A DNA stretch of 64,000 nucleotides from assembly GCA_965218295.1 (NCBI GenBank), contig CBDCKN010000012.1:1-64000 (forward strand), in the 5' to 3' direction. How positions within the stretch are numbered: position 1 is the first letter of the stretch; each line of letters opens with the position of its first letter. The notes beneath the pieces are model-generated. The model was given only the letters and a program-made list of their open reading frames with translations, was not told the origin of the DNA and searched no databases. This stretch comes from Longimicrobiales bacterium (GTDB taxonomy: Bacteria; Gemmatimonadota; Gemmatimonadetes; Longimicrobiales; Gaopeijiaceae). The translations under genes were made by a program, and so were the position numbers. Positions 28,383 to 36,258 of the stretch are shown piece after piece.

Positions 28383-28994
28383 TCAGGCTTCCGAGGTAGC
28401 CACCTCCACGAGGCCGCGCTCTCGCCTCGGCAGCTTGGCCGCCATCGCCAAGGCTTCCTGTCGGCCCGCATCCGACATCTTGGCCCACGTCCGTCGGAGG
28501 ATTCCCACCATCTTCTCGTCGTCGTGCTTGCGCGCGAGCTCGACGAACTCGTTCTCGAAGAACACCATACAGATGGCGTCCTCAAAGAGCTGGACTTCGG
28601 GGTCACGCCCGAGTCCGATCTTGCGGAGGAGCGTCTCGACGCGGACGACGGTCGCCTCGTCGTATCCCACCTCCTCGAGCACTTCGCGCGCGATCTCCGC
28701 ATGTATTCTGGACAGGTCGCTTCGCCAGCGGCGATACCCCCGACGACCCGCGTCGTACTCGCTCCGGGGCACCTTCCAGCGCCGAATGTGCTGACACGCG
28801 GCCGCGAGGCGAAGAGGGACGGAAGCCTCCGCATCGAAGTGGAGGACCCAGTGCGCCAGGCGCTGATGGTAGTGGACGGACCACGGCGTTTCGGCGCCCT
28901 CCAATGCGAAGGAGCGGGGGTCCTCCCGGTGGGCGGCTTCAAAGCGCGCGATCGCCTCCCCTAGACGCGGATCAAACTTCGCTTCTTCGCTCAC
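28383..28994 (-). CDS. DUF4202 family protein
   Basis: EDP, LAAACQHIRRWKVPRSEY, QLFEDAICMVF, TWAKMS. Confidence 0.8.
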   Translation of the reverse strand: MSEEAKFDPRLGEAIARFEAAHREDPRSFALEGAETPWSVHYHQRLAHWVLHFDAEASVPLRLAAACQHIRRWKVPRSEYDAGRRGYRRWRSDLSRIHAEIAREVLEEVGYDEATVVRVETLLRKIGLGRDPEVQLFEDAICMVFFENEFVELARKHDDEKMVGILRRTWAKMSDAGRQEALAMAAKLPRRERGLVEVATSEA

Positions 28995-29038: not shown

Positions 29039-29653
29039 CTACGGTCTGGGCACCGCGAGCTGGCCCAGGAGCTCATCGACGGTGGGGGAGTTCGGCGTCG
29101 TGATCGCCACCACGAATGGCTCCTCGGGGCCCGACACCATGTCGAAGCTCGCGTCTCCGTCCCCGTAGAGTGCCTTCACGTACTTCTCCAGCTCCGGCCG
29201 AGCGGCGGCGAACGTCTCAGCGTCGCTGGGCGCTCGGAGCCGGTCGTAGATCCCGACCTCCACCTCGCTCGTACGGAACCGGTACCGCCCCTCCAGGGCC
29301 GGGTCGCTCTCCAGGAGCGACCCGGCCTGCAACACGGAGCGGAAGGCCCGCGCGATCCCCTCCTCTTCCGTGGCTTCGGCCTTCCGGCGACCACGATACC
29401 GGAGCCCCGGGCGACCGGCGCGCATATCGAAGTAGTAGTGGGCCGTGTCGCAGATCAGGACGACGCCGGGGCCCTTCGGCACGTGCTCGTAGTTCGCCAC
29501 GTCGATGAGGAGCTCGTCCTCGAGAAGGCTCTCTTTGATCCACCGGTGGAAAACGGGGATCAGCTCCTTCAGACGCACGCCGGAGGGATCGTCGACGAAG
29601 AGCTTGACGCTGATCTCCGACGACGCGAGGGGTCGCAGGGGCTCCCCGGTCAC
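29039..29653 (-). CDS. Hypothetical protein coupled to the sulfite reductase gene
   Basis: GTG start overlaps the sir stop; IPVFHRWI...LIDVANYEHVPKGPGVVL; DRLRAP. Confidence 0.75.
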   Translation of the reverse strand: MTGEPLRPLASSEISVKLFVDDPSGVRLKELIPVFHRWIKESLLEDELLIDVANYEHVPKGPGVVLICDTAHYYFDMRAGRPGLRYRGRRKAEATEEEGIARAFRSVLQAGSLLESDPALEGRYRFRTSEVEVGIYDRLRAPSDAETFAAARPELEKYVKALYGDGDASFDMVSGPEEPFVVAITTPNSPTVDELLGQLAVPRP

Positions 29654-31923
29654 ACGGGTGTTCCCGCGGTCCCCATCCGCTGGTAGCAGGCGTACGCCGC
29701 CTCGATGAAGAGTTGAGCCTCCTCGACGCGCTCCCGGGCTTGGTCGGGCCTCCCGCCATTCCCTCCGACCTCGTGCGCTCGGAACAGATAGCTGGCGAAC
29801 TTCGCTCCCGCGAATCGGTCGTGGAAGCGCTTCGTCTCATGGAAGCGGGTCCTGAACTCTTCCACGATATGCTCGGGGTCGTCGGTGACGTCGAGGAATT
29901 CGGTCTTCACCAGAGCCTTCGCGGCGGACAGCATGGCTCGATAGGCCAGTTCCGTGGCCTTCGCCGAAGCCTCCGCGTCGAGGAAGAGCTGCGCTTCGAA
30001 GACCTCGCGCTCGCTGGCCTGCAGCCCGAACTCCACCAGCGGCAGCATCTCGCCCGCGCACTCACCCTCTCCGTAGTCCTCCATCGTGTACTCACGTGGA
30101 TCGCCCCAGTCGGAGTAGGAGGAGGGATCTTCCGCGTAGCTAGGCACCGCGGAGAGGTCTTTCAGGAAGTCCTTCACCTCCGCCTTGCCGAGGCGCTGAA
30201 TGAACTCTCCGAAGGTCTCGTCCGCCTCGCGCTCCTTGACATACCGGTCTGTGACCCGCCGAACGACTTCGGGTATCCTCTTCGACGGGATCGCGAGCGT
30301 CGCCAGGCCGTACGAGCCGGCGTTCTCGGTCCACTTCCCGCCGAGCACGACCTGGAAGTGCGGCACGAGGCGGCCGTCCTTCTTGCGGCTGATGCCGTAG
30401 AAACCGATGTCAGCGACGTGGTGCTGTCCGCAGGAGTTGAAGCAGCCACTCGCCTTGATCCGGAGGCCCTTGATGGCGTCATCGACGCCACCCAACTGGC
30501 TTCGAAGCTCGGCCGCTAGGCCCCGGGACGAAGCGATCCCGAGCTTGCAGGTGTCGGTGCCCGGGCAGGCCGTGATGTCCGCGATGCTTTCGGCACCGGC
30601 CTCGGCCAGGTCGACAGCCTCGAGGGCCGCGTGCAGGCGTGGGAGGTCGGCCTCCTTCACCCAGCGAAGCACGATGTTCTGCTCCACCGTCAGCCGGACG
30701 TTGTCGCCCACGAAGTCGCGCGCGATGTCCGCCAGGGACCGCATCTGGTCCGACGTGATGTCTCCAAGCGGCAGCTTTGCCGTGGCCACCGCGTATCCTG
30801 CCTGTCTTTGGGGCCGGACGTTGGTCTGCTGCCAAGCCTGGAAAGCCGCAGAAAAGTCGCCGTTGGTTTGCGGGTCGAGCGGCCTTCCCTCCCCGAGCGG
30901 TCGCTCCTCGTAGGCGTCCAGCTCTTCGAGGTATGCCGTCCAACGGGGATCGTGTGGAAGCGCCGCCCGCTCTTCGAGCACCAGCTTGCGGAACTCGTCG
31001 ATGCCGAGCTTGGCCACGAGGAACTTGATCCGCGCACGCCCCCGATTCTTCTTCTCACCCAGTCGTGCGAAGACTCGGCACACGGCCTGGGAAAGGGGCA
31101 ACAACTCCTGCTCGGTCACAAACTCGTCCAGGAGCTTCGCCTGGTGCGGGATCGCGCCGAGCCCCCCGCCAACGTAGAAGCCGAACCCGCGCCGGAGCTT
31201 TCCGTCCTCCATGCGCTCCCTGGCGATCAGCCCCAGATCGTGCAGGCTCACGAGCCCGCACGCCTCACCCTCACAGCCCGAAAACGCGACCTTGAACTTG
31301 CGGCCGAGGTCCTGCACGTCGGGGTGACCCAGCAAGAACTCTTTGAGGGCCTCAGCGTACGGCGTGACGTCGAAAATCTCCGTACGGCACACACCGGCGA
31401 GGTAGCAAGCCGTGACGTTGCGCACCGAGTTGCCGCAAGCTTCGCGCGTGGTGATCCCCACCGCGGCCAAGCGTCGCATGAGGTCGGGAGTGTCGTCAAT
31501 ATGGACGAAGTGGAGTTGGATGTCTTGGCGGGTCGTCACGTGGGAAATCCCGTCCGAGTAGTCCTCAGCCAACTCCGCGAGCACGTCCATCTGCTCGGTC
31601 GTGACCTTCCCGTATGGGATCTTGATCCGGACCATGCCCGGCGCGTCCCACACGGTTTCGGCGCCCTTCGTTTCGTGCTCCTGATAGGGCAGGCTCCGGT
31701 TTTGGGTCCCGTCGTGACGCTGACCGTTGTCGTAGCGCTGGCCGTAGACCCCGCACCGGAGACGAGTCTCCGCGAACAGCCGCTCATCGACCTCGCCCTG
31801 ACGTCGGAGCTCCATCTGCATCTCGAAGATCTCGATCTCTCGACCGAGCTTGTCGGGGATCCGCCCCTTCAGCTTCTCACTCCAGGAGCCGGGCGTCCCT
31901 GTACTCTCGAGCACGCCTTCCAT
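29650..31923 (-). CDS. Siroheme nitrite/sulfite reductase (Sir/CysI type) with C-terminal helical extension
   Basis: TTRQDIQLH, RKFK, CPGTDTC and SGCFNSCGQH [4Fe-4S]/siroheme ligands. Confidence 0.92.
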   Translation of the reverse strand: MEGVLESTGTPGSWSEKLKGRIPDKLGREIEIFEMQMELRRQGEVDERLFAETRLRCGVYGQRYDNGQRHDGTQNRSLPYQEHETKGAETVWDAPGMVRIKIPYGKVTTEQMDVLAELAEDYSDGISHVTTRQDIQLHFVHIDDTPDLMRRLAAVGITTREACGNSVRNVTACYLAGVCRTEIFDVTPYAEALKEFLLGHPDVQDLGRKFKVAFSGCEGEACGLVSLHDLGLIARERMEDGKLRRGFGFYVGGGLGAIPHQAKLLDEFVTEQELLPLSQAVCRVFARLGEKKNRGRARIKFLVAKLGIDEFRKLVLEERAALPHDPRWTAYLEELDAYEERPLGEGRPLDPQTNGDFSAAFQAWQQTNVRPQRQAGYAVATAKLPLGDITSDQMRSLADIARDFVGDNVRLTVEQNIVLRWVKEADLPRLHAALEAVDLAEAGAESIADITACPGTDTCKLGIASSRGLAAELRSQLGGVDDAIKGLRIKASGCFNSCGQHHVADIGFYGISRKKDGRLVPHFQVVLGGKWTENAGSYGLATLAIPSKRIPEVVRRVTDRYVKEREADETFGEFIQRLGKAEVKDFLKDLSAVPSYAEDPSSYSDWGDPREYTMEDYGEGECAGEMLPLVEFGLQASEREVFEAQLFLDAEASAKATELAYRAMLSAAKALVKTEFLDVTDDPEHIVEEFRTRFHETKRFHDRFAGAKFASYLFRAHEVGGNGGRPDQARERVEEAQLFIEAAYACYQRMGTAGTPV

Positions 31924-31939
31924 AATCGTTCTCCTTCTC

Positions 31940-33379
31940 TCAGGCAACGCCCACCACCGCACGCCCACCGTCGGCCACCGCGGCGTATTCGTCGTTGCGT
32001 TCGCCCTTCAAGACTCCTCCCTCGTTTTCCAGCAGTCGCCGGGCCACCTCGCCTACGATGAGGGTCGCGGGCGAGCGGAGCTCCGACGTGCGGATTCTCT
32101 CGGCTAGCGTAGCGAGGGTTCCGACGACCATCCGTTCGTCGCTGCGGGAGGCGCGGCTCACGGCCACCGCAGGGGTGTCGGGTGCGCGCCCCTCCGAAGC
32201 GAGCCCCTCCAACACGTCTTCGGCCGATGCGAGTCCCATCAACACGATCACGGTTTCCTCTTCGGGAGGAAGCTCACCACGCGTGCGGCCACCGGCGTCG
32301 TGCCCGGTTCGCACCGTGAACCCCTTCGCGAGGCCGCGCTGGGTCAGGGGTGTTCCCGCAGCGGCGGGCGCGGCGACCACGGCACTCAAGCCTGGCACAA
32401 CCTCCCAGGAGATCCCGGCTGCAGTGAGGGCCTCCACTTCCTCGCCCCCCCGCCCGAAGACGAACGGGTCACCTCCGTGGAGGCGTACCACGCGTCTTCC
32501 GGACCTCGCCTCTCGGATCATGAGCGGAACCCTCCGATCCGAGGGTGAGACAACGCGCTGCGACGCCCCCCGCGAGCGGTGCCCTACGTCGACGACCCTC
32601 GTTCCTGGAAGCGCGAGCTCCAACACCTCATCCTCCACGAGGGCATCGTGGAGGATGACGTCGGCCCGCTGGATCCGGTCCAGAGCACGCAACGTCAGAA
32701 GCTGCCGACTGCCCGGTCCCGCACCCACGATCGCCACGGTCCCCGGGTCGAACGGCTCCTCCTCCTCCCGATATATGGCCTCCAGGCGGCGCGCGGCCGT
32801 CTCCGTGTCACCCCGGTCCACCAGCTTGGTGATGGTCGGATCGAAGAGCGCCCTGAGGAGGTGGCCGCGTTGCCTGAGGCCCTTGAGGCCTCGAGAGCGA
32901 AGGCGGATGAGTAAGTCCGCCACCGACGTCAGGCTCCGGGGAATGGCCGCCTCCAGCAGTCGGCGAAGCTGCCCCGCCAGGAGCGGCGAGCCGCCGTCGG
33001 TGCTGATGGTCATCACCACAGGACCCCGGCGGACGATGGCCGGCGAGTAGAAGTCGCAGAAGGCCGGGTCATCCGCCGCGTTCACGAGGATGCCCCGAGC
33101 CCGGGCCGCCTCCGCCAGTCGGCGATTCACGGCGGGATCGTCCGTGGCGGCCACCACCACCTTGGCTCCCGAGACATCGTCGTCCCGGACCGGCCGCCGG
33201 TCGAAGCGCCACACCTCGGGCAGCCACGCCCGCATTTCCGGCGACACGCCCGGAGAGACGAGGTGGATCCTGGCGCCCGCGTGGATCAGCGGCACGATCT
33301 TCTCCGCCGCGACCCCGCCGCCCCCGGCCAGGAGGACGCGCTGGCCTTCCAACCCCACGAGCTGAATCGGATATCCCAT
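31940..33379 (-). CDS. cysG: Siroheme synthase
   Basis: N-terminal GGGGVA, NAADDPAFCDF, ISTDGGSP; C-terminal VGAGPG, RLHGGDPFVFGRGGEE. Confidence 0.92.
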   Translation of the reverse strand: MGYPIQLVGLEGQRVLLAGGGGVAAEKIVPLIHAGARIHLVSPGVSPEMRAWLPEVWRFDRRPVRDDDVSGAKVVVAATDDPAVNRRLAEAARARGILVNAADDPAFCDFYSPAIVRRGPVVMTISTDGGSPLLAGQLRRLLEAAIPRSLTSVADLLIRLRSRGLKGLRQRGHLLRALFDPTITKLVDRGDTETAARRLEAIYREEEEPFDPGTVAIVGAGPGSRQLLTLRALDRIQRADVILHDALVEDEVLELALPGTRVVDVGHRSRGASQRVVSPSDRRVPLMIREARSGRRVVRLHGGDPFVFGRGGEEVEALTAAGISWEVVPGLSAVVAAPAAAGTPLTQRGLAKGFTVRTGHDAGGRTRGELPPEEETVIVLMGLASAEDVLEGLASEGRAPDTPAVAVSRASRSDERMVVGTLATLAERIRTSELRSPATLIVGEVARRLLENEGGVLKGERNDEYAAVADGGRAVVGVA

Positions 33380-33414
33380 ATGACAGCTCCAAGAGCTCCG
33401 AAGCTTCAGGAACG

Positions 33415-33450
33415 AAAAAAAACCCCGACCTCCTCAGGGAAGCCGGGGTT
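33415..33450 (-). terminator. Intrinsic terminator in the cysG leader (attenuator)
   Basis: AACCCCGGCTTCC-CTGA-GGAGGTCGGGG followed by T8, 35 nt before the cysG ATG. Confidence 0.88.
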
Positions 33451-33470
33451 CGGGAGACTCGCCGCGTCCG

Positions 33471-33554
33471 TTAGGCGCAGCCGGCTCCGGACCCGCCCTC
33501 CCGGGGCAAAGTCATGCGACAACAGCAACAAGCGCAGTGATCAAAGCGACTCAT
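33471..33554 (-). CDS. Cys-rich leader peptide MSRFDHCACCCCRMTLPREGGSGAGCA (27 aa)
   Basis: Manual translation; 5 Cys codons within 6 positions; lies between the promoter and the terminator. Confidence 0.8.
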   Translation of the reverse strand: MSRFDHCACCCCRMTLPREGGSGAGCA

Positions 33555-33610
33555 GTTTGGGATGTTTCCCTTCCGGTCGTACGCCGATACGTACTGAACT
33601 CCACGCTATC

Positions 33611-33640
33611 AGAGTAAAAGGACACCCCCGGCCGAGTCAA
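33611..33640 (-). promoter_or_regulatory. Sigma70-like promoter of the cys leader
   Basis: TTGACT-N18-TACTCT on the minus strand. Confidence 0.6.
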
Positions 33641-34500: not shown

Positions 34501-36258
34501 ATGACGGACCAGAAGCGCAGACTAGCGGCAATCCTGAGCGCCGACGTTGTCGGGTATTCCCGGCTGATGGGCGATGACGAGGAAGCGACGATCGAAGTCC
34601 TCGTGGACTGTCGGGATGTGTTCAGCAAGCGTGTAGAGAACCACGACGGCAGGGTGGTCGACACGGCCGGTGACAGTGTTCTCAGCGTCTTCGATAGCGT
34701 GGTCGAGGCCGTCCGCTGTGCGATGGAGATTCAGATCGCGCTGTCTGAGCGGAACGAGGAACTCAGCGAGGATCGCAGAATGCGATTCCGCATCGGCATC
34801 AACCTGGGCGACATCATCGAAAAGGAAGACGGGACGGTCTATGGCGACGGCGTGAACGTCGCTGCTCGAATGGAGGCGTTGGCCGAACCCGGGGGCGTGA
34901 CCCTGTCGGACGACGCATACCGCCAGGTTCGCGCCAAGCTCGAGGTGACGTTCGAGGACATGGGTGATCAGGAGGTCAAGAACATCGCGGAGCGGATCCG
35001 CGCCTTCCGCCTAGTGGACTTCGACCGCACGCGAGCTGGGCCGGTCTCTCAGGCTCGGTTGGAGCTGCCGGACAAGCCGTCGATCGCGGTGCTGCCGTTT
35101 CAGAATCTGAGTGGCGACCCCGAGCAGGAGTACTTCTCGGACGGACTCACCGAGGACATCATCACGGATCTCTCGAAGCTATCCGGCCTATTCGTGATCG
35201 GTCGCAACTCGTCCTTCGCGTACAAGGGGAAGGCGGCGGACCTGACGAGGGTCGGAAGGGAGCTCGGCGTTCACTACGCGCTGGAGGGAAGTGTGCAAAA
35301 GGCCGGCAACCGCGTGCGCATCAACGCCAAGCTCGCCGATACCAGGAGCTCCCGCTATACGTCTGGGCCGAACGGTACGACGGGACCTCCGACGACATCT
35401 TCGCCCTGCAGGACGACATCACGGGAAAGATCGTGTCGGCCCTCTCCGTCCAGCTGACCGCAGCAGAGGAGAAACAGAGGGGAAGCGAGTACACGAGCAG
35501 CGTCGAAGCTTCATGATCTTTTCCTCAGAGCTCGAGTTCTGTACCGTCAACCCAGTCCGGTGACCAACGCCGAGGCACTCGCGATGTTCGATGCGGCCCT
35601 AGCCCTGGATCCAGGCTTCGCGCTGGCCTTGGCGTATCGCAGCTACGTGAAGCTCCATGCGTGGTTATTCGGCTGGAATACCGATCCTGACGCCTTGGAC
35701 TTGGCGATTCGGGACGCCGAAGCTTCCATCGCCCAGGATCCGAACCTGGCCATCGGGCACTCCTTCCTGGGCTGGATGCACATGTGGAAGGACGGGCATC
35801 AGCGCAGCCTCTCCGAACATGAACTGGCGCTAGCTCTCGACCCGAATTCCTCGGATGCCCAACTCTTCTATTCCTCAAGCCTCATCTTCAGCGGGCAGCC
35901 GGAGCTGGCGGAAGCGCCTATGATACATGCGCACCGCCTGGATCCGCACCTCTCGGCTCCGGCCCTGCTCAACTACGTCCACCTGTACCTCCAGACGGGG
36001 CGGTACGCGGAAGCCGAGCGTCATAGGGATGAGCTACTGGAAAAGGCGCCCGACTATCCCGCCGCTCATGTGTACGACGCAATGCTCCGAAACGCTTGCG
36101 GCGACCAGGAGGGCGTCCGGAGGTCCGGGGAAGAGATTGTCAGGTTGATGCCCGGGGCCACTGTGACCGCTCTCAGCCGGCAGTACCCTTACGCCAAGCC
36201 CGAGCAACAGGCCCGATTGCTTGAGGGTCTGCGGGCGGCCGGGCTACCCGAGTCCTAA
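34501..36258 (+). CDS. Class III adenylate/guanylate cyclase domain, TolB-like domain and TPR; two apparent frameshifts (~35355, ~35510)
   Basis: [38 protein letters not shown]; the missing linker VWAERYD...IFALQDDIT is in an adjacent frame; TPR part in ORF 35560..36258. Confidence 0.85.

Follow-up and report, generated by a model that had tools for sequence, protein, structure and literature searches.

The DNA upstream of cysG in the 64,000-nt stretch that we analysed (the window) very probably carries a classical four-segment transcription attenuator, which would sense Cys-tRNA in front of a cysG-reductase operon. This reading is drawn from sequence comparison and folding. The parts of the element and the genes behind it, all on the minus strand, are as follows (nt numbers count from the leader ATG).

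33611..33640, minus strand: candidate sigma-70-type promoter, TTGACT (-35, 33640-33635), an 18-nt spacer and TACTCT (-10, 33616-33611)
33471..33554, minus strand: leader ORF of 27 codons plus TAA, read from the sequence, with homologues 18-38 codons long in 38 genomes
33519..33536, minus strand: Cys control codons 7, 9, 10, 11 and 12, three of the five being TGT
33504..33513, minus strand: segment 1, leader nt 42-51, predicted to form a 1:2 protector hairpin with segment 2
33490..33502, minus strand: segment 2, nt 53-65, codons 18-22, predicted antiterminator strand (folding, RNAalifold)
33453..33488, minus strand: stop-codon hairpin, nt 67-102, nested in the predicted antiterminator and containing the 8-mer of an earlier note on this DNA
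33415..33451, minus strand: intrinsic terminator, segments 3 and 4 (33451-33420) with a T8 tract (33422-33415), from the terminator scan and covariation
31940..33379, minus strand: cysG, siroheme synthase, 479 aa (NF007922, 401.8 bits with a cut-off of 400; Pfam)
29650..31968, minus strand: siroheme sulfite/nitrite reductase (NIR_SIR), up to 772 aa (PF01077, PF03460)
29039..29653, minus strand: 204-aa ORF without family match, overlapping the reductase stop
28383..28994, minus strand: DUF4202 protein gene (PF13875), with the same position in relative L003

The earlier note had read a TTGACT-N18-TACTCT promoter, a 27-codon ORF with five Cys codons in six positions, a GC-rich hairpin with T8 and a downstream cysG, and each of these is found at the positions listed. 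The ORF begins with the ATG at 33554 and has a further Cys at codon 26; its Cys run sits 15 codons ahead of the stop. The promoter is weak, with 8 of 12 consensus matches; an alternative -10 at 33618-33613 would leave a 16-nt spacer, and a promoter scan at its own threshold listed no site at the leader, the TTGACT/TACTCT pair included. The predicted -10 and the leader ATG are 56 nt apart, which would place the transcript start about 50 nt upstream of the ATG and give a 5′ UTR of roughly 50 nt. A TTGAC -35 with a -10-like hexamer was found at most 110 nt upstream in 35 of 44 homologous leaders in first position, a count made without a shuffle control. The leader Shine-Dalgarno is also weak (a purine stretch ending 12-14 nt before the ATG), and in many homologues the pattern used here detected no ribosome-binding site for the leader. 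No match to Pfam or NCBIfam was obtained with the leader peptides.

The first gene past the terminator is cysG, after a gap of 35 nt, and the promoter scan gave no promoter-like site between the two. The reductase that follows scores below every NCBIfam cut-off, the NirA family being the best, and its nearest counterparts among solved structures bear the names nitrite reductase or NirA; among named genomes, its best matches (76-83% identity) are titled Gemmatimonadota or Longimicrobiales. Because the reductase gene lies directly behind cysH in several genera (g10, g81, g82 and g91), we infer that its substrate is sulfite. The 204-aa ORF, for which neither Pfam nor NCBIfam gave a match, is likely the third gene of the operon, and the DUF4202 gene likely the last. 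A similar ORF occupies the position of the 204-aa ORF, after the reductase, in four relatives (L001-L004), and the ORF (29039-29653, minus strand) is a candidate accessory factor. Elsewhere in the window, at 34501-36258 on the plus strand, an ORF with an adenylate/guanylate-cyclase domain (318 aa) is followed by a 232-aa ORF resembling its TPR-containing tail; the pair may represent a single gene interrupted by a frameshift.

The earlier note had proposed an alignment of the regions upstream of orthologues and had taken a lack of Cys-rich uORFs there as an argument against its reading. We searched 251 genomes of the family, 46 of which have a reductase orthologue; two (G185 and G244) were left out because of contig ends. 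A Cys leader with a terminator hairpin precedes the operon in 39 of the 44 testable genomes and in all 12 genera with the reductase, counts that do not represent independent events since the genomes are kin. The leader holds at least three Cys codons in 38 of these 39 genomes and two in the remaining one (G168). The five genomes without a leader all belong to genus g74 (five of its six), and two of them had less than 700 nt of upstream sequence. At g74 loci L134, L137, L139, L142 and L143, the reductase gene stands without cysG or cysH in front.

In the 49 elements tabulated from 38 genomes, the length of the leader (18-38 codons) and the distance from the last Cys of the run to the stop (11-16 codons in 46 of 49) are kept, while the number of Cys (2-9), their spacing and the flanking residues, including those ahead of the run, vary. 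At seven loci of genera g81 and g82 (L131, L132, L138, L141, L144, L155 and L157), an Ala and a Met codon interrupt the run, which may make these leaders responsive to methionine too or give them two possible starts. Domains were searched in 55 of 68 picked downstream ORFs, once near-duplicates and those already annotated were dropped. Sulfur-related genes made up 47 of these 55 first ORFs (28 PAPS reductase, 15 CysG N-terminal domain, two NIR_SIR, one TauE and one ATP-sulfurylase); one other was an IS1595 transposase and seven had no match. Outside the family, 80 named loci were examined, with taxa grouped by record title, and counted where at least 2.5 kb of upstream sequence was available. 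Cys leaders were present at 16 of 24 loci in Vicinamibacteria and unplaced Acidobacteriota, one of two in Gemmatimonadota and five of 13 in others; none was found in Latescibacterota (0 of 10), Myxococcota (0 of 11), Deltaproteobacteria/Binatia (0 of 8) or Thermoanaerobaculia/Holophagales (0 of 4). As a control for these loci, 1.72 Mb of downstream and opposite-strand sequence gave eight matches, one of which lies before an ATP-sulfurylase gene.

The terminator stem has 14 pairs, eight of them G-C. In a 23-row alignment, 97.2% of 252 cells are paired and both sides change in four of 11 pairs; none of 500 shuffles reached as high a value, which also lies above all slid controls. The putative 1:2 hairpin (nt 42-51 with 57-65) shows 81.2% of cells paired, with changes on both sides in three of nine pairs. 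Its probability at length 104 is 0.57 in the naked transcript and falls to between 0.30 and 0.00 when a ribosome stalls at codon 12. In most homologues a hairpin follows the Cys run; the model for this genome loses 1:2 only on late stalls.

Folding of a transcript that ends at the terminator loop pairs nt 53-65 with nt 104-118 at a probability of 0.95-0.96. This helix encloses the stop-codon hairpin, for which 75.5% of cells are paired and six of 12 pairs change on both sides. RNAalifold predicts the same 2:3 helix for truncated homologues in subgroups of 14 and nine sequences, with 94% of cells paired in the outer helix of the group of 14; some pairs differ on one or both sides between groups and few within them. 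In 25 of 27 cysG-type leaders the antiterminator strand begins 15-21 nt past the last Cys codon of the run, a start that is predicted to fall just outside the footprint of a stalled ribosome. Covariation of the 2:3 helix is weak: in the unadjusted 23-row alignment, 86.8% of its cells are paired but 67 of 500 shuffles score as high, partly due to a one-column register shift between groups. With shuffles that keep composition, 12 of 49 elements stand at 5 of 100 or fewer (this element at 5 of 100) and the mean is 9.9 versus 7.7 pairs; the procedure is invalid for G011, G130, G239, G188a, G201a, G232a, G172a and G050, because a late Cys was counted into the run and the partner strand was missed.

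At equilibrium, the full-length terminator dominates in every state, with a probability of 1.00 even in the presence of a stalled ribosome, so that read-through would need kinetic control. Masking the stop codon with a ribosome removes the inner hairpin, and the energy goes from -43.9 to -27.1 kcal/mol (about 17 lost). The outer 2:3 helix persists under this mask in the equilibrium model (0.29-0.88); a ribosome bound at the stop would presumably block it.

These predictions bear on the antiterminator that the earlier note had proposed, a helix between codons 23-25 (nt 67-74) and the 5′ arm of the terminator. The 8-bp complementarity is present in this genome (seven Watson-Crick pairs and one G-U), 20-23 of 23 homologues keep each of its first three pairs, one of which differs on both sides between groups, and a ribosome at the stop codon would cover it directly. 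Folding with and without a ribosome mask, as the note had advised, does predict a competing helix, but a different one. The codons 23-25 helix has a mean pair probability of 0.00 in the naked and Cys-stalled transcripts and of at most 0.18 in any state, because its bases sit in the hairpin over the stop codon, where RNAalifold also places them. Moreover, five of its eight pairs are broken in 6-12 of the 23 homologues, with 71.7% paired overall. An attenuator in which this helix is the working antiterminator, or in which both helices act in turn, is thus improbable. We therefore reassign the predicted antiterminator to nt 53-65 (codons 18-22), which would pair with the 5′ arm of the terminator and enclose the hairpin over the stop codon.

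Codon usage provides a further indication. TGT accounts for 186 of 267 Cys codons in the 49 leaders versus 763 of 3220 in the long ORFs of this genome, and for 44 of 63 when one leader per genus is taken. In the two leaders of this genome, eight of 12 run codons are TGT, compared with 23.7% genome-wide (binomial p=0.002). Since a single tRNA-Cys, with anticodon GCA, was found, TGT is the codon read by wobble. A preference for the slower codon would fit a stalling sensor and would be unexpected under selection on the peptide.

The following scheme can be proposed. Transcription would start some 50 nt upstream of the leader ATG. Under a shortage of Cys-tRNA, the ribosome would stall at codons 7-12, covering or weakening segment 1; nt 53-65, left free, could then capture the 5′ arm of the terminator, with the stop-codon hairpin enclosed, while the 3′ arm has yet to be transcribed, and RNA polymerase would read through into cysG. 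With ample cysteine, the ribosome would run over segment 2 and melt the stop-codon hairpin, the 3:4 terminator would form and transcription would end at the U run, close to position 33415. The sequence itself displays the ORF with its Cys run, the terminator and the downstream genes, all of which recur among relatives, whereas leader translation, stalling, its timing and termination are what we infer from them. Conservation, gene context, terminator covariation and codon bias all support the overall reading of the earlier note, a Cys-sensing attenuator acting through a terminator. Six RNA runs, all available as assembled contigs, contained only 0.05-0.10 of the words, two of them (X5 and X6) being without usable sequence; in run X4, a 180-nt contig of a relative covers 33415-33579 with a 15-letter loose end past the U run, at a depth of 2.8.

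Other explanations can be weighed against this scheme. In translational attenuation of the Mycobacterium Ms5788A type, a stall would free the cysG ribosome-binding site and the hairpin would be no working terminator. According to the available text of 10.1101/834739, this is the only mechanism shown experimentally for poly-Cys leaders. The cysG ribosome-binding site, about 25 nt past the U run, is indeed predicted to be partly paired, and the U tracts are poor in some homologues (G220 and G149). Nevertheless, access to the cysG Shine-Dalgarno is 0.21, 0.21 and 0.20 across the three modelled states, which argues against a translational switch, and the Cys codons do not pair with it. With a hairpin and U run conserved with covariation and a distance from terminator to next gene that varies widely among homologues, we consider this mechanism very unlikely. 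Much the same degree of doubt applies to a functional small peptide, binding metals or sensing redox state or metals, whose small gene would end at the hairpin while cysG would depend on leaky read-through or on other control. Clustered Cys residues can bind metals, and residues past the run are partly conserved within subgroups. However, Cys number, spacing and flanks vary while length and distances are kept, the conserved downstream codons correspond to helix strands, and the TGT bias points to selection on decoding. The lack of a promoter-like site between terminator and cysG, the lack of a family match for the peptide and a gene context of sulfur assimilation rather than metals also speak against a peptide function.

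Finally, read-through could be set by Rho, by an RNA-binding protein or by a ligand, with a minor part for the leader ORF. A rho gene was found in the genome, and Rho-dependent control has been proposed for actinobacterial cys leaders (PMC1262725, available portion). Here, a conserved intrinsic terminator and a predicted competing helix are already in place, and the attenuator model does not need Rho. Searched with Rfam, six loci gave nothing that reached the gathering score, the T-box and SAM riboswitch models included, and the window stretch gave four chance-level matches only (E 0.29-0.88). We regard this as the least probable of the explanations considered, and retain the Cys-tRNA attenuator.

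The association of Cys runs with terminators appears specific within the genome. The assembly contains 171 terminator-like sites, 34 of them closely preceded by an ATG ORF of 8-45 codons. Cys runs (at least three Cys in eight codons) occur in two of these 34 ORFs, the leader before cysG and a leader before cysH, both ahead of sulfur-assimilation genes. Searched separately for short ATG ORFs with at least four Cys in seven codons, the 3.57-Mb assembly yielded 15. No Cys leader with a terminator was found in this genome before sat or before four PALP-family genes, nor at the cysS loci of five relatives. The cysS gene itself was not found in this assembly (90.67% complete), probably an assembly gap since it is present in five of five relatives.

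Leaders with other codon runs were also observed. A His-run leader (seven His in eight codons) with a terminator precedes hisG (G000:C3 474880, plus strand; L166), where a promoter-like site lies nearby and the leader may be leaderless, and a Tyr/Phe-run leader with a terminator precedes a DAHP synthase gene (G000:C10 11909, minus strand; L167). The organism thus appears to use leader-peptide attenuation more generally. Three near-identical stretches with a short ORF, two Trp codons and a terminator (G000:C3 144229 and 140808, both minus strand, and C9 359191, plus strand) are more likely a repeated element than an attenuator.

The second Cys leader of this genome lies before the PAPS/APS reductase gene cysH (G000:C3 419052-418981, minus strand; L007 14053-13982). 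It has seven Cys in eight codons and a good promoter-like site, and two tandem terminators follow, the first 5′ arm recurring in the second. Two terminator-like hairpins follow the cysH-type leader in all nine relatives compared with it, as well as in G001 and G138. In G011, G130, G153 and G239, folding predicts a helix between the freed 3′ arm of terminator 1 and the 5′ arm of terminator 2, so that one stalled ribosome could disable two terminators in a relay. As the cysH copy of this genome folded into a different helix, we offer the relay as a hypothesis.

Two Cys leaders with their own terminators are placed in series before a single cysH/reductase operon in five g10 genomes (L151, L152, L153, L154 and L147) and in G001 (L173/L176). 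No TTGAC -35 was detected within 110 nt of the second leader in the five g10 genomes. In G214, an IS1595-family transposase gene lies between the two stacked leaders. G001 carries cysH with stacked leaders twice (G001:C1 1719875 and 1745683; L176 and L173), 26 kb apart and with identical upstream sequence in the part compared; this duplicated cysH resembles the g10 type and is 74% identical to that of our genome, hinting at duplication and transfer. The cysH query used gave no match in G002 and G005. A comparable arrangement, with a pair of serial Cys leaders and their terminators upstream of cysH, was observed at a locus titled Phototrophicaceae (L087 4255-4501, plus strand). Tentatively, and leaning slightly against it, we consider that the family may run sulfur assimilation as a cysteine 'ribulon' of intrinsic-terminator attenuators, combining separate cysG-reductase and cysH leaders, serial attenuators and a two-terminator relay. 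If true, a biosynthetic operon would for the first time be shown to undergo terminator-type cysteine attenuation, and the arrangement would be a natural multiplicative switch.

Cysteine is a gap in the classical list of attenuators, the tested poly-Cys system being translational and the terminator-type case that we found being a prediction for cysS. The element described here is a complete, conserved and compact candidate switch. It suggests how an uncultured family, likely Gemmatimonadota, senses its supply of cysteine, points to small ORFs missing from the annotation of its genomes and speaks for sulfite as the substrate of a reductase that is closest, among solved structures, to proteins named nitrite reductases. 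The stacked and relay designs are possible parts for a cysteine biosensor; the control logic itself is textbook.

In the literature covered, with subscription and Russian-language comparative papers outside its scope, we found no report of such elements in Gemmatimonadota or Acidobacteriota or before cysG, cysH or reductase genes. The main text of PMC11109978 does not contain 'cys', and the available portions of PMC2965389 and PMC13236596 hold no additional terminator-type Cys attenuator. The statement of the earlier note that poly-Cys leaders are established in Actinobacteria agrees with the available text of the reports that predict them (PMC1262725) and that examine them experimentally (10.1101/834739). 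Its remark that no terminator-based version was known to it in this lineage also stands, although a terminator-type Cys uORF is already in print, as a prediction, for cysS of Rhodobacterales (PMC8632094, available portion).

Among known systems, the cys and cbs leader peptides predicted in Actinobacteria, with Rho-dependent control proposed, likewise carry Cys-codon runs in leader ORFs upstream of cys operons; the portion of PMC1262725 available describes them without conserved terminator hairpins, unlike the element here, in which the terminator is conserved. The polycysteine sORF Ms5788A of M. smegmatis is leaderless, has its Cys tract near the 3′ end and acts on translation through Shine-Dalgarno occlusion and not through termination, as far as the accessible part of 10.1101/834739 describes it. 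It shares with our element a poly-Cys uORF before cysteine-metabolism genes and several independent loci per genome (a 'ribulon'). In contrast, the element here has a terminator, a predicted 5′ UTR of roughly 50 nt and a run located 15 codons before the stop. Going by the predicted -10 the leader is not leaderless, while in G221, G087 and G230 a -10 lies within 6-11 nt of the chosen ATG; nor do its Cys codons hide a Shine-Dalgarno, access being unchanged between states. Closer in design is uORFC-8-2 before cysS in Rhodobacterales, a Cys uORF with a predicted intrinsic terminator for which attenuation by Cys-tRNA was proposed (PMC8632094), so that both it and our element are predictions of ribosome-mediated attenuation. 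In the available text of that source, uORFC-8-2 has two tandem Cys at positions 14-15, is found exclusively before the tRNA synthetase gene and comes without a described antiterminator. The leaders here have 2-9 Cys and precede cysG, cysH and reductase genes; the two were compared by description, and one supplement of PMC8632094 gave no match. The element is a member of neither the Ms5788A nor the uORFC-8-2 family.

E. coli trpL and Salmonella hisL are classical leader-peptide transcription attenuators of amino-acid operons (10.1101/834739, available portion). As in these, the element has a short ORF rich in codons for the end product and a terminator with a U run, before a biosynthetic operon, together with a predicted competing antiterminator that shares the terminator 5′ arm and a predicted 1:2 hairpin. 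It differs from them in its predicted sensing of cysteine, in its likely Gemmatimonadota lineage, in an antiterminator predicted to be a long helix enclosing a conserved stop-codon hairpin, and in the stacking of two leaders or two terminators among its relatives. Attenuators of the trpL/hisL type work with four RNA segments, and in terms of its sequence features the element is one of this class.
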